Shown one piece after another: positions 1 through 58,920 of a stretch of DNA of 64,000 nucleotides (position 1 is the stretch's first letter; each line of letters opens with the position of its first letter). A program made the position numbers and the translations under genes. Below the pieces are notes generated by a model. It was not told where the DNA came from and searched no databases. It saw only the letters and a list, made by a program, of their open reading frames with translations. This DNA is from Escherichia coli (GTDB lineage Bacteria; Pseudomonadota; Gammaproteobacteria; Enterobacterales; Enterobacteriaceae): the NCBI RefSeq assembly GCF_003018255.1, contig NZ_CP027440.1, one strand, 5' to 3'.

Positions 1-495
1 AAAACCCAGTTTGAAAAAGAAAAACTGGCTCAGGATCGCATTAAAACGAAAAATCAACTTGATGCAAACATTCAGCGCCTCAATTATTCACTCGACATTG
101 CCAACGCGGCAGGAATTAAAAAGCCCGTTTACAGTAATGGTCAGGCCGTTAAAGATGACCCCGATTTCTCTATTTCTCTCGGCGCAGACGGTATTGAACG
201 CAAACTGGAAATTGAAAAAGCGGTTACTGACGTTGCGGAACTGAACGGTGAATTACGTAATCGTCAGTATCTTGTTGAGCAGTTAACAAAAGCAAATATC
301 AACGATGTGAATTTTACGCCGTTTAAATATCAGTTAAGCCCGTCATTGCCAGTGAAAAAAGACGGTCCGGGTAAGGCGATTATTGTGATCCTTTCTGCGA
401 TGATCGGCGGGATGGTGGCTTGTGGTGGCGTGCTGTTGCGCTATGCGATGGCATCCAGAAAACAGGATGCCATGATAGCAGACCACTTAGTTTAA
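1..495 (+). CDS. fepE: FepE (Wzz-like chain-length regulator family), 3' portion only; 5' end lies upstream of the window
   Basis: Frame 1 is open from nt 1 to the stop at 493-495; C-terminal peptide ...ILSAMIGGMVACGGVLLRYAMASRKQDAMIADHLV with terminal TM segment; sits upstream of fepC as in the ent/fep cluster. Confidence 0.85.
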   Translation, partial: KTQFEKEKLAQDRIKTKNQLDANIQRLNYSLDIANAAGIKKPVYSNGQAVKDDPDFSISLGADGIERKLEIEKAVTDVAELNGELRNRQYLVEQLTKANINDVNFTPFKYQLSPSLPVKKDGPGKAIIVILSAMIGGMVACGGVLLRYAMASRKQDAMIADHLV

Positions 496-3407: not shown

Positions 3408-4658
3408 ATGAATAAACAATCCTGGCTGCTTAACCTCAGCCTGTTGAAAACGCACCCGGCGTTTCGCGCAGTATTCCTCGCTCGTTTTATCTCAATTGTG
3501 TCTCTGGGTTTGCTCGGCGTCGCGGTACCGGTGCAGATCCAGATAATGACGCATTCTACCTGGCAGGTGGGGCTTTCGGTGACGCTGACCGGCGGCGCGA
3601 TGTTTGTTGGCCTGATGGTCGGCGGTGTGCTGGCGGATCGCTATGAGCGCAAAAAAGTGATTTTGCTGGCGCGCGGCACCTGTGGCATTGGCTTCATTGG
3701 ACTGTGCCTTAATGCACTGCTGCCGGAGCCGTCATTGCTGGCAATCTATTTACTTGGTTTATGGGATGGTTTTTTCGCATCACTTGGCGTTACGGCGCTA
3801 CTGGCGGCGACACCAGCACTGGTAGGGCGTGAAAACTTAATGCAGGCCGGGGCGATCACCATGTTGACCGTGCGTCTGGGATCGGTGATTTCGCCCATGA
3901 TTGGCGGTTTACTGCTGGCGACTGGCGGTGTGGCCTGGAACTACGGGCTGGCGGCGGCGGGCACGTTTATTACCTTGCTACCGTTGTTAAGCCTTCCGGC
4001 GTTACCACCACCACCGCAGCCGCGTGAGCATCCGTTGAAATCATTACTGGCAGGATTTCGTTTTCTGCTCGCCAGCCCGCTGGTAGGAGGGATTGCGCTG
4101 TTGGGTGGTTTATTGACGATGGCGAGCGCGGTGCGGGTACTGTATCCGGCGCTGGCTGACAACTGGCAGATGTCGGCGGCACAGATTGGTTTTCTCTATG
4201 CGGCGATCCCGCTCGGCGCGGCTATTGGCGCGTTAACCAGCGGGAAGCTGGCACATAGCGCGCGACCAGGGTTATTGATGCTGCTCTCCACGCTGGGATC
4301 GTTCCTCGCCATTGGGCTGTTTGGCCTGATGCCGATGTGGATTTTAGGCGTGATTTGTCTGGCGCTATTCGGCTGGCTGAGCGCGGTCAGCTCGTTGCTG
4401 CAATACACAATGCTGCAAACGCAAACCCCGGAAGCGATGTTAGGGCGGATTAACGGTTTGTGGACGGCGCAAAACGTGACGGGCGATGCCATAGGCGCGG
4501 CGCTGTTAGGCGGTCTGGGAGCGATGATGACACCGGTTGCTTCCGCAAGCGCGAGCGGTTTTGGTTTGTTGATTATCGGCGTGTTGTTATTGCTGGTGCT
4601 GGTGGAGTTGCGGCGTTTTCGCCAGACGCCGCCGCAGGTGACAGCGTCCGACAGTTAA
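3408..4658 (+). CDS. entS: Enterobactin exporter, MFS family
   Basis: 416-aa polytopic ORF divergent from fepD with a Fur box between them; matches recalled EntS (YbdA). Confidence 0.93.
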
Positions 4659-4661
4659 TGC

Positions 4662-5618
4662 TTAAAACAGCGCCTTAAGTCGTTCCAGCACTTGCATGGC
4701 GCTGTAGTAATCCAGTCGGAACGTCTCGGTTCCCAGCGCATAAACCTGCTTGTTTTGTACTGCAGGCAGGTGCGCGAGCAGCGGATTGGCATAAATCGCA
4801 TCGGCATCTTTCTGATCACCGGCGAACAGGAATAGTGACTCGCCATTTAACCCTGCAGCCAGATTTTCCCCACCAAGCTGAATGATGTCATGGCGTTTAC
4901 CCTGGCTTTGGCTGGCATTTAACCCTGCGGGTAACTTCGCCAGCGTAAAGCCGAGTTGTTCCAGCATCTGCCCTTGTGCTGATTCCGGCGTCCAGAGATT
5001 GGCACTGTGTGCAGCGGCAGTATAGACAATGGCAGTGACCGGCTGCGGCGGTAATTTGATTTGCTCTTTCGCCGCCGCCAGTTGCTTATCAAACTGCGCA
5101 ATCCGCTCTGCCGCTTGTTTCTCATGCCCGGTAATTTCGCCAAGTTGCGTTAACAGCGCCTGCCAGCTTTTGTCGTCGTAATTGATGATTAATGTCGGGG
5201 CGATGGTGGAAAGCTGATCATACAGCGCCAGCGCCGAATCACCGCCGGTTGCGCTAATTAAAATCAGATCCGGCATTTGCGCGGCAACGGCTTCGGCGCT
5301 CGGTTCGCCGATATAGAGCCGTTGCAGTTTGCGTTCTTTCGCCACCTTGCTCCACTGGCGTAAAAAGCCCTGGTCATCCGCTACGCGGTTATTCGGCGTG
5401 GTCGCGCCGCTGGCGATCACCGGAGCATCAATCGCCAGCAGTGAGCCGGTCAGGGTGACGCTGGTGGAAACAATACGCTGCGGCTGGCTTTCTAGGGTAT
5501 GAGTGCCCCGGCTGTCAGTAATCTGACGCGGCCAGTCGGCAGCCTGAACTGCGGCTATTCCTGAAAGCAAAAGTCCTGTTAATAGAAGGGCGTTGCGGTA
5601 GAGCGGGGCGAGTCTCAC
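4662..5618 (-). CDS. fepB: Periplasmic ferric enterobactin binding protein
   Basis: 318-aa ORF with N-terminal signal peptide (..[10 protein letters not shown]); convergent with entS, divergent from entC. Confidence 0.93.
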
Positions 5619-13093: not shown

Positions 13094-13291
13094 ATGTTTG
13101 ATTCACTGGCAAAAGCCGGAAAATATTTAGGTCAGGCGGCGAAGCTGATGATTGGTATGCCTGATTACGACAACTATGTCGAACATATGCGGGTTAACCA
13201 TCCCGATCAAACGCCGATGACCTACGAAGAGTTTTTCCGTGAGCGGCAGGACGCGCGCTACGGTGGAAAAGGCGGCGCGCGCTGCTGCTAA
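13094..13291 (+). CDS. ybdD: Small CstA-associated protein (DUF466 family)
   Basis: 65-aa [41 protein letters not shown]... downstream of cstA. Confidence 0.85.
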
Positions 13292-13300
13292 ATTGGTACG

Positions 13301-14389
13301 TCAGGCTTGAAACGATTCCACTTTTTCGAACGCTGCACGTAACGTATCTGGTGTCAGCGTGACCGGCAGGTAATGAATGGATTCCACCGGACGTAAGGTG
13401 TGGGCAATCACTTTGTCGATCTCCGCCTGATTATTGATATCCACTTCCAGCTCCGCCAGCGTAGTCGGCAGATGAAAACGCTGATACGCCTCTGTTAATT
13501 GCGCCAGCACATCATCCTGACCCAGCAAGGCGCTTTGCACCAGAATTCCGTAGGCGACTTTGGTGCCGTGGAGAAACTTCTCGGTTTGCGGCAAAACGGT
13601 CAGACCGTTATGCACGGCATGGGCCGCCGCCACACGCGTAAAACGATCGCCCAGACCACCGACCATCCCACCACCAGCAATAATAGCATCCACCACATCG
13701 CAAAATGATTGCGTTAACTGTTGTTTTTGCTGATCGCTCAGCGCCTGTTCGCTACTGTTTAACAAGACGTCGCGAATGGCCTGCGCATTATTGATCCCCA
13801 GCCGCACGGTTAGCGGCAACGTTTCTGGTTGCGGAGCCAGCACCACCGCTTCATACCATTTCGCCAGCGTGTCACCGATCCCCGCCAGCAGATATTCTTG
13901 CGGCGCATTGAGGATAATCTCTGGCTCCACCAGCACCATAAAATTGGCGTCGTCGAAAATCTCATAATGCAGCGCCTGTCCGGCATCGTTATACCAGACG
14001 GAGAGCGGTGTCCAGGCGGCGCAGGTGGCGGCGATCGTCGGAACGGCAACAAACGGCAGACCGAGACGGCGGGCGAGGGCTTTCGCGGTGTCGAGCAGTG
14101 CGCCGCCGCCGACGCCAATCACCACGCTGCGATCGTCACCGGACTCAGCCGCCAGTTGTTGTACATCGCTTTCGCTGCAATGGCCGCGAAACAAAATATG
14201 CTTTGCCCCTGGCAGTTCAAACGCTGGCGGAAGTTTTGTTTGCGCCGCAGCAATGGCGCGTTCGCCGTAGATCCACACCGCGCGAGAAAGTTGTTCATCA
14301 GTGAAAAAATCGTGCAGGTGATTGAAACTTCCGGGATGTGAAAAGTAGTTAGCCGGGCCGACGACCACGCGGATAGGATTGTGAGGCAT
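13301..14389 (-). CDS. ybdH: Iron-containing (glycerol-dehydrogenase-like) alcohol/hydroxycarboxylate dehydrogenase
   Basis: 362-aa ORF with GGG nucleotide-binding motif (VIGVGGGALLD); convergent with ybdD, 9-nt spacer. Confidence 0.9.
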   Translation of the reverse strand: MPHNPIRVVVGPANYFSHPGSFNHLHDFFTDEQLSRAVWIYGERAIAAAQTKLPPAFELPGAKHILFRGHCSESDVQQLAAESGDDRSVVIGVGGGALLDTAKALARRLGLPFVAVPTIAATCAAWTPLSVWYNDAGQALHYEIFDDANFMVLVEPEIILNAPQEYLLAGIGDTLAKWYEAVVLAPQPETLPLTVRLGINNAQAIRDVLLNSSEQALSDQQKQQLTQSFCDVVDAIIAGGGMVGGLGDRFTRVAAAHAVHNGLTVLPQTEKFLHGTKVAYGILVQSALLGQDDVLAQLTEAYQRFHLPTTLAELEVDINNQAEIDKVIAHTLRPVESIHYLPVTLTPDTLRAAFEKVESFQA

Positions 14390-14497
14390 GTTGTGTTGTC
14401 CTTATTGTTTTATTTAGACATCTAAACGTCTTGATTGCCAAATACTAGCATCGTGTTATAGTGCCTTCAACACGCAACTTCGTCAGGTACAATAAAA

Positions 14498-15658
14498 ATG
14501 ACAAATAACCCTCTGATTCCACAAAGCAAACTTCCACAACTTGGCACCACTATTTTCACCCGGATGAGCGCGCTGGCGCAGCAACACCAGGCCATTAACC
14601 TGTCGCAAGGCTTTCCTGATTTTGATGGTCCGCGCTATTTGCAGGAGCGGCTGGCGTACCATGTTGACCAGGGGGCAAACCAATACGCGCCTATGACTGG
14701 CGTACAGGCCTTGCGCGAGGCGATTGCTCAGAAAACGGAACGTCTGTATGGCTATCAACCGGATGCCGATAGCGATATCACCGTAACGGCAGGGGCGACG
14801 GAAGCGTTATATGCAGCGATTACCGCATTGGTGCGCAATGGTGATGAAGTGATCTGCTTTGATCCCAGCTATGACAGTTACGCGCCCGCCATCGCGCTTT
14901 CGGGGGGAATAGTGAAACGTATTGCACTGCAACCACCGCATTTTCGCGTGGACTGGCAGGAATTTGCCGCATTGTTAAGCGAGCGCACCCGACTGGTGAT
15001 CCTCAACACCCCGCATAACCCCAGTGCAACTGTCTGGCAGCAGGCTGATTTCGCCGCTTTGTGGCAGGCGATCGCCGGGCACGAGATTTTTGTCATTAGC
15101 GATGAAGTCTACGAGCACATCAATTTTTCACAACAGGGCCATGCCAGCGTGCTGGCGCATCCGCAATTGCGTGAGCGAGCGGTGGCGGTGTCATCGTTTG
15201 GCAAGACCTATCATATGACCGGCTGGAAAGTGGGTTATTGCGTTGCGCCTGCGCCCATCAGCGCCGAGATCCGCAAAGTGCATCAGTATCTGACCTTTTC
15301 GGTGAATACCCCGGCACAGTTGGCGCTTGCCGATATGCTACGTGCAGAACCTGAGCATTATCTTGCGTTACCGGACTTTTATCGCCAGAAACGCGATATT
15401 CTGGTGAATGCCTTAAGTGAGAGTCGGCTGGAGATTTTACCGTGCGAAGGTACATACTTTTTGCTGGTGGATTACAGCGCGGTTTCTTCGCTAGATGACG
15501 TTAAGTTTTGCCAGTGGCTGACGCGGGAGCACGGTGTAGCGGCGATCCCGCTGTCGGTATTTTGCGCCGATCCCTTCCCCCATAAACTGATTCGTCTCTG
15601 TTTTGCCAAGAAGGAATCGACGTTGCTGGCAGCAGCTGAACGCCTGCGCCAGCTGTAG
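14498..15658 (+). CDS. ybdL: PLP-dependent methionine aminotransferase
   Basis: 386-aa aminotransferase class I/II ORF; SFGKTYHMTGWKVGY PLP-lysine region. Confidence 0.92.
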   Translation: MTNNPLIPQSKLPQLGTTIFTRMSALAQQHQAINLSQGFPDFDGPRYLQERLAYHVDQGANQYAPMTGVQALREAIAQKTERLYGYQPDADSDITVTAGATEALYAAITALVRNGDEVICFDPSYDSYAPAIALSGGIVKRIALQPPHFRVDWQEFAALLSERTRLVILNTPHNPSATVWQQADFAALWQAIAGHEIFVISDEVYEHINFSQQGHASVLAHPQLRERAVAVSSFGKTYHMTGWKVGYCVAPAPISAEIRKVHQYLTFSVNTPAQLALADMLRAEPEHYLALPDFYRQKRDILVNALSESRLEILPCEGTYFLLVDYSAVSSLDDVKFCQWLTREHGVAAIPLSVFCADPFPHKLIRLCFAKKESTLLAAAERLRQL

Positions 15659-16288
15659 TTATTTGACAGTCCAGGCACGGGAATATTGACGGTCGGCAAA
15701 CAACTCTTGCAGGCCGTTAATTTGTTTCAGGCGCAGCACTTCGTCGCTGTCCATTCCCAGCTCTTTGCCAATTTTATTATCGTCCCATCCCAACTGGCTG
15801 AGTTCACGAACAATTTCGGACATGGCAGTGATTTGGTGGCGACCACGAGCGCGGTTATGACGAATAGTCGCGGCGATGCGTTGATTACGCGTACCTTCCA
15901 GACAGGTCACCGGCAAATAACCTTTTAAGCGTAATTTTAACGATGATGAGCCTTTACCAATTTCATGGCGGTGAAAACCATCCACGATTTCCAGGGCATT
16001 TTTATCCGTATGCGTGACCACAATGGGTTGGGTAAAACCATCTATTTCAATGGATTTTTTCAGCAGTTTTTTTTCGGGTGGTGCCACGTTGTTTGGGTTG
16101 TAATCATTAGGCATAAGTTGGCTGTTTTTAACCCACAGAACGCAATCCACTGGCTCTTCACGAAAGGGGCTAACCTGATGGATCGCCATGCGGATTTCAT
16201 TAATCGCTTTGATGCGATCATCTTCCGGCAAGCTGGCGAGAAATTGGGTTAAATCCTGCGTTAATCGTTGTTGCATAGTATCCCCCAT
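15659..16288 (-). CDS. ybdM: ParB/Srx-like nuclease-domain protein (IbrB-like)
   Basis: 209-aa ORF; overlaps ybdN stop by 28 nt; stop codon abuts ybdL stop head-to-head. Confidence 0.88.
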   Translation of the reverse strand: MGDTMQQRLTQDLTQFLASLPEDDRIKAINEIRMAIHQVSPFREEPVDCVLWVKNSQLMPNDYNPNNVAPPEKKLLKKSIEIDGFTQPIVVTHTDKNALEIVDGFHRHEIGKGSSSLKLRLKGYLPVTCLEGTRNQRIAATIRHNRARGRHQITAMSEIVRELSQLGWDDNKIGKELGMDSDEVLRLKQINGLQELFADRQYSRAWTVK

Positions 16289-17481
16289 TCCTGACGTTTT
16301 CCTTTTATCCGTTCGTTATAACGCTGATAGTTCTTCGCTTTCGTAGGACTAAATGATAATGCCCGGCACCAGTAATCGTTATTGAGTAAAACTTTGCATA
16401 TTCGCCGCCAGGAGGGGATATCTTTCGCGCCAATGTCCCCTTGCTGGGTTTGTGGAACTTCGATGCCTTTTTTCTGATACCAGTGCAAATAAATGGCGAT
16501 TTTATTGCGGTAATGCTCAGCTGTTTTTTCCGGCATGCTATTGAGCAGCAATAATGCATATTCTTGCCAGTCTAAATGTTCTGGCTTGAGGATTTTCCGA
16601 TGACCATAAAAATGATTATCATGTCCGGCGTAAATGCCGCCACTTTTTACCCCGCTGACTCGTGCGCACATAGCAGCCCAGCGATCCGGTTCGATAACGT
16701 GATAGAGCCATAATCCTTGCCGTTGCTCCGGGCCAAAAGGTTCGCAAATTCGCATATGACGCAGAGGAACGCCTGCCTGATACATTATATTATACAGTGG
16801 GTTACAGAGCTGTTGATGGTTAGCATACCAGGTCCAGATATCAGCCACTTTCCAGTCGTAGATGGGGTAAATGTACCAGCTATGACCGCCTGGTGCGGCG
16901 GTGGTCCAGGGCATATCATCGGCAAAACGTTGTTTATTTAAACTGGCGATGGCGACAAAACGGTTGTAGGACTCATCTGCACGGATGCCGATCATCATCG
17001 CCGCCGGACGTTTTTGTGAAAACCATTCAGCAAACTCACGCACAAATTGTTCGAAGGTCATGCCAGGCTGGTAAAAGGAGAAAAAGTCAGGATCGGTTAT
17101 CGCATCTTGCGGGGGCTGACGCACCCATTCGACATCAGGTTCCCAGCACTGCCATTCGGGTTGGTATTGAGAAAGGGAATTTTGCGTCGTAAGCGGGAGC
17201 GCAACCCAGTAAAACTCTTCGATGACATCGGCGTAAAACTCACGTAATGACTGAACATAGTTAATAGTGCATGAGAACTGCGCTTCCCAGTCGATAAACA
17301 AAACGCAGATTTTTTTGCCCATTTGTCGGGCAATTTCGGCTGTCAGATGCAGCATTAATCCGGAATCTTTACCACCCGAAAAAGAAACACAGATACGGGG
17401 TAGGGTATTAAGTGTCCAGGTAATACGTTCTTTTGCAGCTTCCAGAATATTCAGTGGAAGCGGGATTTTATAAATAGACAT
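16261..17481 (-). CDS. ybdN: PP-loop ATP pyrophosphatase / PAPS-reductase-family protein (IbrA-like)
   Basis: 406-aa ORF with PP-loop motif SFSGGKDS near the N-terminus. Confidence 0.88.
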   Translation of the reverse strand: MSIYKIPLPLNILEAAKERITWTLNTLPRICVSFSGGKDSGLMLHLTAEIARQMGKKICVLFIDWEAQFSCTINYVQSLREFYADVIEEFYWVALPLTTQNSLSQYQPEWQCWEPDVEWVRQPPQDAITDPDFFSFYQPGMTFEQFVREFAEWFSQKRPAAMMIGIRADESYNRFVAIASLNKQRFADDMPWTTAAPGGHSWYIYPIYDWKVADIWTWYANHQQLCNPLYNIMYQAGVPLRHMRICEPFGPEQRQGLWLYHVIEPDRWAAMCARVSGVKSGGIYAGHDNHFYGHRKILKPEHLDWQEYALLLLNSMPEKTAEHYRNKIAIYLHWYQKKGIEVPQTQQGDIGAKDIPSWRRICKVLLNNDYWCRALSFSPTKAKNYQRYNERIKGKRQEWGILCNND

Positions 17482-17627
17482 CTAAAAACGCTCTCTGAAC
17501 GTTACGGGGTGACTCGTGAGATGAATCCGCTAATTATAGGATAAACGAAGCAAGATAGAGCACATTATTTTATATTCACACAATGAATTAATTGATGCGT
17601 AATATATTATTTGTCAGTGGTAATGAA

Positions 17628-19482: not shown

Positions 19483-19699
19483 TAATTTGTCCTTTTCAGT
19501 CAGTGCAAAAGTCGAGTAAAAGGCATAACCTATCACTGTCATAGGTAAGAGCTTAGATCAGGTGATTGCCCTTTGTTTATGAGGGTGTTGTAATCCATGT
19601 CGTTGTTGCATTTGTAAGGGCAACACCTCAGCCTGCAGGCAGGCGCTGAAGATACCAAAGGGTAGTTCAGATTACACGGTCACCTGGAAAGGGGGCCAT

Positions 19700-19853
19700 T
19701 TTACTTTTTATCGCCGCTGGCGGTGCAAAGTTCACAAAGTTGTCTTACGAAGGTTGTAAGGTAAAACTTATCGATTTGATAATGGAAACGCATTAGCCGA
19801 ATCGGCAAAAATTGGTTACCTTACATCTCATCGAAAACACGGAGGAAGTATAG
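19700..19853. promoter_or_regulatory. ahpC promoter region, expected site of OxyR control (exact operator not resolved)
   Basis: Position upstream of ahpC; ahpCF is a known OxyR regulon member; I could not pin an OxyR tetranucleotide array by eye, so only the region is given. Confidence 0.3.
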
Positions 19854-22153: not shown

Positions 22154-22183
22154 GAAGAAGTAAGATTCACCTGCAATTGCTTA

Positions 22184-22214
22184 GCCGCCGGGGTCAAACC
22201 TGGCGGCTTTTTTA
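22184..22214 (+). terminator. Intrinsic terminator downstream of ahpF
   Basis: GCCGCCggggtcaaacctGGCGGC stem followed by T7 run, 30 nt after the ahpF stop; a palindromic GC-rich segment preceded by an A5 run (22222-22258) may serve the convergent uspG. Confidence 0.7.
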
Positions 22215-23469: not shown

Positions 23470-23698
23470 TTTTACTCCATGTCGTCGGTACTGCGAGTGT
23501 CGCAGATAAACATACCCAAAAGAAAACCCTCACCGTCAGGCGGCGAGGGTTTAACTCACATGATGATACTGACTGTTGCTCACTCTTTGAAGTGATTTGC
23601 GTCACATTCAGGGAATTCCTCAATGTAGCGCATTATGTATAAATCTTAATCGTCATGGTTTATGGAAGACGAATTAGCGTGTTTTGTAAATCAGAGGA

Positions 23699-24553: not shown

Positions 24554-24587
24554 AAAAAAGCCCGCCAGGTGGGTTTACCTGGCGGGC
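24554..24587 (-). terminator. Intrinsic terminator downstream of citT
   Basis: 11-bp stem GCCCGCCAGGT / ACCTGGCGGGC with 6-nt loop, followed on the minus strand by a U6 run; lies between the citT stop and the rna start. Confidence 0.7.
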
Positions 24588-57842: not shown

Positions 57843-57855
57843 AAATCTACTCCAG

Positions 57856-58011
57856 AAAAAAGAGGGTAGCAGCGTTAACTGCTACCCTCGAAGATTGTTA
57901 CCCAGCGTATTGCGGTTTTCAGGCCCGATGGGGAACGACCACCAGGCGTATAGTCTGTCCGTGCTACGTAACAATCGAGAGGGCTGGAATTTCCGCCCCT
58001 GGTTCTTGTAA
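57856..58011 (-). ncRNA. sroC: SroC-like sRNA derived from the gltI-gltJ spacer
   Basis: 169-nt gltI-gltJ spacer ends, on the minus strand, in an 11-bp GC stem (57862-57872 / 57879-57889) followed by a U6 run; SroC is known to be processed from this spacer; 5' end not determinable here. Confidence 0.5.
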
Positions 58012-58920
58012 TTAGTTCAGTGCCTTGTCATTCGGTTCTTTGAACAGTGCTTTCATTTCGTCTGACAGTTCGAAATTCATGTTCAGGTTTTTCGGCGGAA
58101 TTGGATTTTTGAACCACTTATCAAACCATTTTTCCGCTTCACCGGAGGTCTGCACCTGAGCGATGGTATCATCCATCAGCTTTTTGAACTGCGGATCGTC
58201 TTTACGCAACATGCAACCATAGGCTTCCTGAGACTGCGGCTTGCCGACGATTTCCCAGTTGTCTGGTTTCTTCGCTTTCGCACGTTCACCGGCCAGCAGA
58301 GCATCATCCATCATAAAGGCAACGGCACGACCGCTTTCCAGGGTACGGAAAGAGTCACCGTGATCTTTGGCGCTGATGATGCGCATATTCATTTTTTGCT
58401 CTTCATTCAGTTTGTTGAGCAAAACTTCAGAGGTGGTGCCGGAAGTGACGACTACGGCTTTGCCTTTCAGGTCGGCAAAATCTTTGATATCGCCGCCCTT
58501 TTTGGTCAGCAGGCGCGTACCGACCACGAAAATAGTGTCAGAGAAAGCCGCCTGTTTTTGGCGTTCGGCATTGTTGGTGGTAGAACCGCATTCAAAATCG
58601 AAAGTGCCGTTTTGCAGCAGTGGAATACGGTTTTGTGAGGTGATCGGAATCAATTTCACCTGTAAGTCTGGTTTGTTGAGTTTCTTTTTCACTGCTTCAA
58701 CAATGGCGTTGGAGTAATCCTGCGAGTAGCCCACCACTTTTTGCTGATTGTCGTAATAAGAGAAAGGTACTGAAGATTCACGGTGACCGACGACAATCAC
58801 GCCGTTTTTGGCGATTTTGTCCAGCGTACTGCCTGCTGCCGGGGCGGCGTCATCTGCCTGTGCCAGTCCTGCGGAAAGCGCCAGGGCCAGGATTGCTGTG
58901 GCAGGTTTACGTAATTGCAT
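58012..58920 (-). CDS. gltI: Periplasmic glutamate/aspartate binding protein
   Basis: 302-aa product from MQLRKPATAILALALSAGLAQA (signal peptide); track ORF extends 25 codons upstream through the 5' UTR. Confidence 0.94.
   Translation of the reverse strand: MQLRKPATAILALALSAGLAQADDAAPAAGSTLDKIAKNGVIVVGHRESSVPFSYYDNQQKVVGYSQDYSNAIVEAVKKKLNKPDLQVKLIPITSQNRIPLLQNGTFDFECGSTTNNAERQKQAAFSDTIFVVGTRLLTKKGGDIKDFADLKGKAVVVTSGTTSEVLLNKLNEEQKMNMRIISAKDHGDSFRTLESGRAVAFMMDDALLAGERAKAKKPDNWEIVGKPQSQEAYGCMLRKDDPQFKKLMDDTIAQVQTSGEAEKWFDKWFKNPIPPKNLNMNFELSDEMKALFKEPNDKALN

Follow-up and report, generated by a model that had tools for sequence, protein, structure and literature searches.

Results

The ybdL and ybdM coding regions meet at touching stop codons

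Where do the transcripts of two convergent genes end when no DNA lies between the coding regions? This question is raised by ybdL and ybdM in the window, the whole 64,000-nucleotide stretch of Escherichia coli DNA analyzed here. The two genes are on opposite strands with their 3′ ends facing each other, as seen in both the open reading frames (ORFs) and the RefSeq annotation (Table 1). The letters across the junction read CAG CTG TAG / TTA TTT GAC on the plus strand, where the slash marks the boundary. Sequence, ORF list and RefSeq all agreed that the ybdL TAG abuts the reverse complement of the ybdM stop codon, as a sequence-only reading of this DNA had proposed. In the RefSeq annotation of the best-matching strain, E. 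coli 104, no nucleotide separates the two genes either, and the same holds for a K-12 derivative. Strain 104 was 100% identical to the window over positions 14400-17600 and 99.2–99.4% identical over the full length; gene coordinates were therefore re-derived on the window itself. YbdL matched the Pfam family Aminotran_1_2 at 2e-58, and ybdM shares 28 nt with ybdN (16261-17481). The same reading had called ybdM-ybdN an AT-rich module, which is mildly so (44–52% GC, compared to 51–56% for ybdL), whereas the clearly AT-rich part is citR with its flanks (31–40% GC).

Table 1. Coordinates of the coding regions, junctions and candidate RNA features in the window
Feature	Position	Strand	Description and basis
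ybdL CDS	14498..15658	+	386 aa, methionine-oxo-acid transaminase; ORF list, RefSeq annotation, Pfam
ybdL stop codon TAG	15656-15658	+	Sequence read and ORF list
ybdM CDS	15659..16288	-	209 aa, IbrB-like / ParB_N-like; ORF list, RefSeq, domain search
ybdM stop codon TAA	15659-15661	-	Read as TTA on the + strand; sequence read and ORF list
ybdL/ybdM junction	15656..15661		TAG/TTA, two stop codons touching, spacer 0 nt; sequence read
entS CDS	3408..4658	+	
fepB CDS	4662..5618	-	
entS/fepB junction	4656..4664		entS stop TAA, 3-nt spacer tgc (4659-4661), fepB stop (TTA); ORFs and sequence
ybdD CDS	13094..13291	+	
hcxA (ybdH) CDS	13301..14389	-	
ybdD/hcxA junction	13289..13303		ybdD stop TAA, 9-nt spacer attggtacg (13292-13300), hcxA stop (TCA)
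fepE(wzz)/fepC convergent pair	492..495		4-nt overlap (TTAA); annotation and sequence
Hairpin A	15685..15721	+	ATTGACGGTCGGCAAACAACTCTTGCAGGCCGTTAAT; ~-16 kcal/mol, two G.U pairs; ybdL-sense RNA fold; candidate terminator stem for ybdL (intrinsic, embedded in ybdM)
U-rich tail	15719..15730	+	AATTTGTTTCAG; antisense to ybdM codons L-K-Q-I
Hairpin B	15625..15653		GCTGGCAGCAG...CTGCGCCAGC; -16 to -21 kcal/mol on either strand; last ybdL codons; lineage-restricted
Hairpin C	15567..15622	-	Long; on the ybdM-sense RNA directly after the stop codon; z = -5.7 vs dinucleotide shuffles; no U tract
C-rich, G-poor stretch	15737..15814	+	ybdL read-through RNA; C 33%, G 14%, C/G 2.4; composition only
C>G stretch	15386..15541	-	RNA leaving ybdM into ybdL antisense; C/G 1.5-1.75; composition only

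The zero spacer is conserved

Besides E. coli, 46 species from ~11 genera have ybdM beside ybdL, and the spacer is zero in 44 of them. In these 44 species, YbdL and YbdM each stopped at the same residue position and the stops touched, so that an annotation artefact from a wrongly placed stop was excluded. Both stop codons varied among TAA, TAG and TGA while the spacer stayed at 0, and YbdM identity fell to ~60% across the species compared. At the neighbouring ybdD/hcxA junction, 15 of the same loci had spacers of 8 to 191 nt, and three Pseudocitrobacter had one of 859 nt. The zero spacer of ybdL/ybdM is an ancient arrangement that is kept by constraint. The C-termini of both proteins would be needed, and a spacer of zero length would leave just one position tolerating an insertion or deletion. 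Coding constraint alone suffices as an explanation for this conservation.

The sequence-only reading had named entS/fepB and ybdD/hcxA as two other tight convergent pairs. Both are real, with the 3-nt and 9-nt spacers claimed for them, as calculated from the ORF coordinates, but a fourth pair, fepE/fepC, had been missed. Spacers of the 10 convergent CDS pairs in the window were −4, 0, 3, 9, 40, 44, 53, 77, 100 and 120 nt, such that four of the ten were ≤9 nt. Two arbitrary 50-kb segments of K-12 contributed eight further pairs (18 in all), three of which had overlapping CDS (−25, −86 and −4). Tight convergent junctions are common in E. coli, and the ybdL/ybdM layout is no rarity beyond what chance would give. 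At the transcript level, overlap was reported in 276 of 370 convergent operons (75%), with a mean of 286 nt (Conway et al. 2014).

Transcripts overlap at the junction in K-12

With a 0-nt spacer, any 3′ UTR of ybdL or ybdM must overlap the other gene. Overlapping transcripts of this pair are already known and published for MG1655: ybdL-ybdM, entS-fepB and ybdD-hcxA are all among the 165 convergent pairs with overlapping transcription listed with ExcludonFinder (Sanmartin et al. 2025; PMC12288877), where listing meant overlapping transcription, as coverage overlap only, in at least 50% of 58 MG1655 RNA-seq samples. The expectation that transcripts cross all three junctions was thereby borne out in K-12. 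For ybdD/hcxA, it was borne out directly by a Rho-dependent termination region at 632,836 (+), a position antisense to hcxA and ~447 nt into it (supplementary file 2 of Adams et al. 2021), and by p19-captured double-stranded RNA, one cluster of which was annotated as a 522-nt convergent overlap (Huang et al. 2020). The supplementary file of Adams et al. named no Rho region for ybdL or ybdM. In the wild type, ybdM antisense amounted to 4.0 RPM and ybdL sense to 11.2 RPM (Huang et al. 2020, Table S1c); per kb, the antisense was ~two thirds of the sense, in a table whose strand column is unreliable for several neighbouring genes. Antisense at this density over ybdM suggests that termination at the hairpin described below is inefficient at best.

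A conserved hairpin and U tract lie inside ybdM

The sequence-only reading had concluded that the junction leaves no room for terminators. This presumes that terminators are intergenic, and it was overstated: a conserved hairpin with a U-rich tract was found in the 3′ coding end of ybdM, on the ybdL-sense strand. The stem (hairpin A) is located 27–63 nt past the ybdL stop, within the last ~25 codons of ybdM, and the hairpin and tract together occupy 15685-15730, which is 27–72 nt inside ybdM. The tail gave a TransTermHP-style score of −3.9 for TTGTTTCAG..., and of −3.9 or −2.5 for UUGUUUCAG / AAUUUGUUU, depending on where the stem end was set. The tract is interrupted (UUGUUUCAG) and weaker than those of the canonical terminators of the window, such as 22183-22208 and 24560-24587.

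In the window alone, a standard promoter/terminator scan found no terminator at the junction; its only hairpin was at 15536-15554, upstream inside ybdL, and hits of this kind were no more frequent than in shuffled sequence. Rfam matched no known RNA family at the junction. Since the standard scan disallows bulged stems, a looser hairpin-plus-tail scan was written, which had a background of ~0.7 matches per kb per strand at loose thresholds. Matches of equal or better energy than hairpin A occurred at ~0.17 per kb per strand in the window, many of them inside genes. Because of this background, the single-genome evidence for hairpin A as a terminator was weak.

Besides the window, 39 of the 46 other species with ybdM had a hairpin with a T-rich tail, at +29..+61 or, in some lineages, at +9/+16..+57-58. 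The native fold ranged from −14 to −25 kcal/mol in most species, compared to −5 to −12 for synonymous-codon randomisations. Over 47 sequences (the window and 46 species), the median p was 0.01, with p≤0.05 in 66% and p = 0.01 in the window; these p-values come from related species and are hence not independent of each other. Along ybdL-ybdM, only the site of hairpin A gave z-scores that were negative consistently over 7 genera, with a stronger signal on the plus strand. As to the pairing itself, 83.6% of stem cells were paired, compared to 17–57% when the partner columns were slid. Covariation was thin, with only two base pairs changed on both sides, and the shuffle control ignores phylogeny. 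The tail was conserved as (A/G)AT(T/C)TG(C/T)TT in alignment A2. About a dozen of the species without ybdMN instead have, in the ~60 nt that follow the ybdL stop, a hairpin with a T tract, most clearly Kosakonia (+8..+30, −17 kcal/mol, TTATTT). These comparisons suggest that hairpin A and its U tract are probably an embedded terminator of ybdL.

Published 3′-end maps were also searched. The curated Term-seq tables of Adams et al. (2021) contained no 3′ end named ybdL or ybdM and none at 634,6xx-635,1xx, which at such low expression amounts to an absence of data. Likewise, no ybdL or ybdM entries were found among the mapped 3′ ends in the readable tables of Adams 2021, SMRT-Cappable-seq, TERMITe, Dar & Sorek 2018, Conway 2014 and a 3′-seq meta-analysis.

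Other structures and rut-like composition near the junction

Two further hairpins were considered and set aside. Hairpin B, followed on the plus strand by TGTAGTTATTTG, which spans both stops, would have been a terminator right on the junction, but it was not conserved beyond Escherichia and a few other species, with p≤0.05 in only 21% of species, and was rejected as a general mechanism. Hairpin C was likewise rejected as a ybdM terminator, given that it has no U tract and weak cross-species support (p≤0.05 in 34% of species, median p 0.10); it is possibly a structure that protects the 3′ end or causes pausing. The ybdM side showed no recognisable intrinsic terminator. Downstream of both stops, the RNA contains stretches richer in C than in G, whose composition is compatible with rut-like sites suited to Rho loading.

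Discussion

We consider it fairly probable that ybdL and ybdM are an ordinary convergent overlapping pair, in which the ybdL terminator is embedded in ybdM, polymerases that escape it are stopped by Rho, and interference is small. In this arrangement, ybdL and the ybdNM operon are convergent transcription units whose coding regions meet without a spacer, and the 3′ untranslated end of each mRNA lies inside the other gene because there is no intergenic DNA. From the ybdL side, RNA polymerase would proceed 27–72 nt into ybdM and terminate at hairpin A. Polymerases escaping the hairpin would produce untranslated antisense RNA across ybdM and would probably be halted by Rho. Transcripts of ybdNM, normally repressed by CitR, would enter ybdL as antisense, where Rho or head-on polymerases probably bring them to an end. 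Given the weak transcription of the two units, any interference between them is likely to be slight.

Alternatively, termination may be purely factor-dependent and diffuse. Both transcripts would then continue into the facing gene up to the point where Rho or a collision with an oncoming polymerase stops them, and hairpin A would be incidental, or would only block trimming by 3′ exonucleases and so set the stable end of the ybdL mRNA. We regard this as a serious but clearly less probable account. It fits with the weak U tract, the failure of any intrinsic terminator at the junction to pass the standard scan, the substantial antisense signal over the whole of ybdM, the Rho-dependent region documented at the neighbouring ybdD/hcxA junction and the C-rich, G-poor stretches after both stops. 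Moreover, collision-assisted bidirectional termination needs a stem-loop only and no canonical terminator. However, a T-rich tract follows the hairpin in most genera, and the hairpin is kept through alternative pairings and beats its synonymous-codon controls, which would be unexpected if it were incidental. A role as a trimming barrier fits these same data, such that this account is only partly separable from that of an embedded terminator.

The mechanisms invoked on both sides have known counterparts. Rho is known to suppress antisense read-through, including in ybdH/hcxA (Adams et al. 2021); the resemblance lies in untranslated antisense RNA that enters a convergent gene and in C-rich, G-poor stretches downstream, but this was documented for the ybdD/hcxA junction and not for ybdL/ybdM. 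Overlapping bidirectional terminators (Ju et al. 2019; Wang et al. 2022, preprint) are similar in having a stem-loop where a convergent pair meets and no canonical terminator in one direction. They have been described between convergent genes and are most effective for highly expressed pairs, whereas ybdL/ybdM is weakly expressed and has no intergenic DNA. By analogy, collision-assisted termination may possibly contribute at ybdL/ybdM. For 146 of the 165 E. coli convergent excludons, "overlapping terminators" inside the neighbouring convergent gene have been predicted. In comparison with these overlapping intrinsic terminators, the candidate hairpin A has an internal mismatch, two G.U pairs and an interrupted U tract, and is coding over its whole length on the other strand.

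The pair is a convergent excludon in the descriptive sense. As in the convergent excludons and overlapping convergent operons of K-12 (concept of Sesto et al. 2013; Conway et al. 2014; Sanmartin et al. 2025), opposite-strand neighbours a short distance apart have overlapping 3′ transcript ends, and the 0-nt spacer is at the extreme of a class with a reported mean of 95 nt. The concept implies reciprocal regulation, however, and for ybdL/ybdM the overlap alone is on record. A functional excludon would mean that the zero spacer and the embedded terminator were selected since ybdL and ybdNM are transcribed in a mutually exclusive manner, owing to colliding polymerases, to cutting of the RNA duplex by RNase III, or to both, which would couple an aminotransferase to the CitR-controlled ybdNM module. 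The presence of the pair on the published list is in line with this, as is a zero spacer that is strictly conserved over ~11 genera while the neighbouring spacer drifts. Nevertheless, we judge it improbable. The list rests on coverage overlap, coding constraint by itself explains the conserved spacer, and p19-captured double-stranded RNA over ybdL and ybdM was low, at 0.9–9.6 RPM compared to 270–600 for hcxA (Huang et al. 2020). In addition, deletion of citR (ybdO) raised ybdN by log2 5.5 and ybdM by log2 2.5, yet ybdL was absent from the listed differentially expressed genes (PMC9068703), and collisions should be rare between two weakly expressed units. The transcriptional interference suggested by the sequence-only reading is only a possibility. 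The strongest version, a selected dual-coding unit in which a ybdL terminator runs antisense through the last ~25 ybdM codons and makes a true excludon of the YbdL aminotransferase against the CitR-repressed, IbrA/IbrB-like YbdNM, has in our view only a slim chance of being right. Such a unit would be more than 100 million years old, as estimated from the Escherichia-Klebsiella-Enterobacter divergence.

Least tenable is the reading that the conserved palindrome acts as DNA, as a site for the ParB-like YbdM or another regulator, or as a stability element of the ybdNM mRNA, and not in the ybdL transcript. ParB-family proteins often bind palindromes in or near their own genes, and YbdM has a ParB_N-like region, but we regard this reading as very improbable and rejected the DNA-site form, on the grounds that the plus-strand RNA was the more stable in 36 of 47 sequences, that the stem depends on G.U pairs, which turn into A.C mismatches in the opposite strand and have no complementarity at the DNA level, that the element on the minus strand sits in translated RNA, and that the 3′ arm, retained in Kluyvera and Pseudocitrobacter, pairs there with another 5′ arm (GGCCTGTG) at a different distance, which suits an RNA fold and not a fixed DNA site.

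The conservation of the zero spacer in 44 of 46 species and the conserved hairpin with a U tract inside ybdM are additions to the published work. The locus has little importance beyond annotation. It is a textbook case of how a convergent neighbour can harbour the 3′ UTR and terminator of a bacterial gene. If reciprocal regulation were true, a broad-specificity aminotransferase would be tied to the uncharacterised, IbrAB-like YbdNM module, although nothing now points there. The junction illustrates that an absence of intergenic space need not mean an absence of a terminator. A hairpin that is kept across genera and also encodes YbdM residues would be a small example of dual constraint, for protein on one strand and for RNA structure on the other, and the ybdL/ybdM junction may serve as a test case for embedded terminators.

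Convergent gene ends in the window

The ORF list placed the stop codons of ybdL and ybdM directly against each other. The junction reads CGC CAG CTG TAG/TTA TTT GAC AGT and the two ORFs end at 15658 (+) and 15659 (-), so the spacer is zero, as the sequence-only reading had stated. The spacers that it gave for two other pairs, 3 nt ('tgc') at entS/fepB and 9 nt at ybdD/hcxA, were likewise recovered. The region 14400-17600 was found in 5,420 of 5,426 complete E. coli genomes, with 100% identity to strain 104 and about 95% to K-12. In the RefSeq annotations of strain 104 and of a K-12 derivative the two genes abut in the same way; the K-12 junction is CTT TAG/CTA TTT AAC, with TAG as the ybdM stop. 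Since the whole window is only 99.2-99.4% identical to strain 104, the gene ends were re-mapped in the window itself.

Coordinates of the genes, hairpins and RNA elements in the window
Feature	Position	Strand	Remark
entS	3408-4658	+	
fepB	4662-5618	-	
fepB 3' hairpin	4667-4705	-	-14.8 kcal/mol
ybdD	13094-13291	+	
hcxA (ybdH)	13301-14389	-	
ybdL	14498-15658	+	stop TAG, 15656-15658
ybdM	15659-16288	-	stop TAA, reverse-complemented at 15659-15661
ybdM and ybdN	15662-17481	-	28-nt overlap
Hairpin A	15685-15721	+	-16 kcal/mol
Hairpins past ybdM stop	15653-15625, 15622-15567	-	
STnc70 sRNA	19616-19709	+	Rfam, over gathering score
rnk leader	23515-23623	-	Rfam, over gathering score
cspA-type thermoregulator, upstream of cspE	36602-37050	+	Rfam, over gathering score
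ybeF (seemingly truncated)	~39927-40483		deletion point ~39953-39960
sroC sRNA	57854-58016	-	Rfam, over gathering score

Ten convergent CDS pairs were present in the window, with spacers of -4, 0, 3, 9, 40, 44, 53, 77, 100, and 120 nt. The pair with the 4-nt overlap, fepE (wzz)/fepC, shares TTAA at 492-495 between both stops and is a fourth tight pair, absent from the earlier list. Two arbitrary 50-kb segments of a K-12 genome held eight convergent pairs (530, 146, -25, -86, -4, 95, 406, and 55 nt). Thus, 5 of these 18 pairs, a small sample, had no spacer or overlapped, and the zero spacer at ybdL/ybdM is not unusual. At entS/fepB, the hairpin in the last fepB codons is followed by TTTAAGCATTAACTG across the fepB and entS stops and may be a fepB terminator overlapping that junction.

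YbdL belongs to the class I/II aminotransferases. YbdM is IbrB-like, with a ParB_N-like region scoring under the Pfam cut-off, and YbdN carries a PAPS-reductase domain and DUF3440, with weak similarity to DndC and BrxP; the overlapping ybdM and ybdN form an IbrA/IbrB-like pair. The ybdM-ybdN module had been called AT-rich, a description that fits mainly citR (ybdO), which encodes a LysR-type regulator, because GC is 31-40% in citR and its flanks versus 44-52% in ybdM-ybdN (51-56% in ybdL). An Rfam search returned no family at the ybdL/ybdM junction. Elsewhere in the window, ybeF lacks a 403-bp segment found in strain 104, whose ybeF measures 954 nt, and only 118-aa and 126-aa ORFs are left between lipA and lipB.

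Conservation of the zero spacer

A scan that took a single genome for each YbdL-bearing species returned 80 loci. In 46 of them ybdM was convergent and directly downstream of ybdL, and in 44 of these 46 the spacer was exactly 0, although YbdM identity fell to about 60% and both stops varied among TAA, TAG, and TGA. The zero-spacer genera were Escherichia, Salmonella, Citrobacter, Enterobacter, Klebsiella, Raoultella, Kluyvera, Lelliottia, Pseudocitrobacter, Superficieibacter, Huaxiibacter, and other Enterobacteriaceae. Only two Citrobacter species deviated, with a 13-nt insertion, TGACG(T/C)GATTTCG, between the stops (loci L018 and L048, 4662-4674). In contrast, the ybdD/hcxA spacer drifted in the same loci (L005-L056): it was 8-9 nt in Escherichia only, and 11-191 nt in Citrobacter, 35 nt in Salmonella, and 859 nt in Pseudocitrobacter. 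Passive retention is the simplest reading of the ybdL/ybdM spacer, because both C-termini are constrained and a zero spacer leaves a single harmless insertion position. In E. coli WP4-S18-ESBL-08 (L087, 5260-6625), IS1A stands in place of most of ybdM, all of ybdN, and part of citR; an 81-nt ybdM 3' stub, including the conserved hairpin described below, is kept beside ybdL.

A terminator-like hairpin embedded in ybdM

A standard promoter/terminator scan returned no terminator at the junction. The earlier argument that the abutting stops leave no room for terminators did not hold, however: local folding revealed a ybdL-sense hairpin (hairpin A, candidate stem of an embedded ybdL intrinsic terminator) followed by TTGTTTCAG. 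Hairpin and tail lie 27-72 nt beyond the ybdL stop, within the last ~25 ybdM codons, and a hairpin with a T-rich tail occurred at the same site in 39 of 46 other ybdM-bearing species. As a control, synonymous codons were re-sampled with each locus's own codon usage. Most species had native fold energies of -14 to -25 kcal/mol, versus -5 to -12 kcal/mol for the randomized sequences; over 47 sequences (the window and 46 species), the median p was 0.01, and 66% reached p ≤ 0.05. In a sliding scan along ybdL and ybdM in seven genera, + strand z-scores were consistently negative at the hairpin (-1.9, -3.3, -1.7, -3.4, -1.7, -4.0, and -0.7) and nowhere else, the signal being weaker on the - strand.

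In the cross-species alignment over the hairpin, 83.6% of stem cells were paired versus 17-57% with partners slid by 1-3 columns. One stem pair is C-G in 19 sequences and U-A in 18, and in K. pneumoniae an A-U pair has changed to G-C. Beyond these there is little covariation, which is no surprise where the partner of a wobble position is a second codon position. In Kluyvera and Pseudocitrobacter the 3' arm CAGGCC is retained but pairs with another 5' arm, GGCCTGTG, further upstream. In 36 of 47 sequences the + strand RNA folded more stably than its - strand counterpart (mean -18.8 versus -15.1 kcal/mol; paired Wilcoxon p 2e-6, not phylogeny-corrected). This asymmetry favors a function as RNA in the ybdL transcript over one in ybdM mRNA or as a DNA site. 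About a dozen species without ybdMN also have a hairpin and T tract within ~60 nt past the ybdL stop, most clearly Kosakonia (+8 to +30, -17 kcal/mol, then TTATTT). Together, this evidence for selection marks hairpin A as a conserved terminator-like element antisense to ybdM. However, a loose scan of the window gave about 0.17 matches per kb per strand with an energy equal to or better than that of hairpin A, its U tract is interrupted, the tables of Adams et al. 2021 map no RNA 3' end at it, and the antisense reads over ybdM point to considerable read-through.

Overlapping transcripts and their likely fate

ExcludonFinder (Sanmartin et al., NAR 2025, PMC12288877) reported 165 convergent pairs whose transcripts overlap in 50% or more of 58 MG1655 RNA-seq samples. 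As ybdL-ybdM is listed, along with entS-fepB and ybdD-hcxA, the overlap predicted from the sequence alone is borne out; TransTermHP predicted overlapping terminators for 146 of the 165. Conway et al. 2014 (PMC4161252) found overlap in 276 of 370 convergent operons, averaging 286 nt. At ybdD/ybdH, Huang et al. 2020 (PMC7373196) captured a double-stranded RNA cluster with p19 at the 3' ends (annotated as a 522-nt convergent overlap), and Adams et al. 2021 (PMC7815308, supplementary file 2) placed a Rho termination region antisense to ybdH at 632,836 (+ strand; score 8.4, p 1e-17), which we mapped 447 nt inside hcxA.

Downstream of the ybdM stop, two hairpins could form in the - strand RNA (z = -5.7 for the pair), both lacking a U tract and weakly supported across species. 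C-rich, G-poor stretches follow both stops, with C/G of 2.4 at 15737-15814 (+ strand RNA) and 1.5-1.75 at 15541-15386 (- strand RNA). Because of these stretches and the Rho region at the neighboring junction, Rho-dependent termination is the most likely fate of untranslated antisense read-through; polymerase collisions possibly contribute.

Wild-type sense/antisense levels were 11.2/1.9 RPM for ybdL and 9.4/4.0 RPM for ybdM, and captured double-stranded RNA was low over both (0.9-9.6 RPM; PMC7373196 gene-level tables), values that are indicative only because the 'Strand' column of Table S1c is wrong for several neighboring genes (ybdH, ybdN, ahpC, fepC, and ybdA). CitR represses ybdNM, and citR deletion raised ybdN by log2 5.5 and ybdM by log2 2.5, with ybdL absent from the changed-gene list and the rest of the text (PMC9068703). 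These rises amount to about 45-fold and only about 6-fold; the lower ybdM value could arise if antisense reads from ybdL raise the baseline of ybdM. Any transcriptional interference between ybdL and ybdM would probably be weak. The arrangement itself is already known, as an annotated layout and a listed excludon pair (a gene pair with overlapping transcripts). The present analysis extends this modestly, in that the zero spacer is very deeply conserved and a conserved terminator-like hairpin lies antisense within ybdM.
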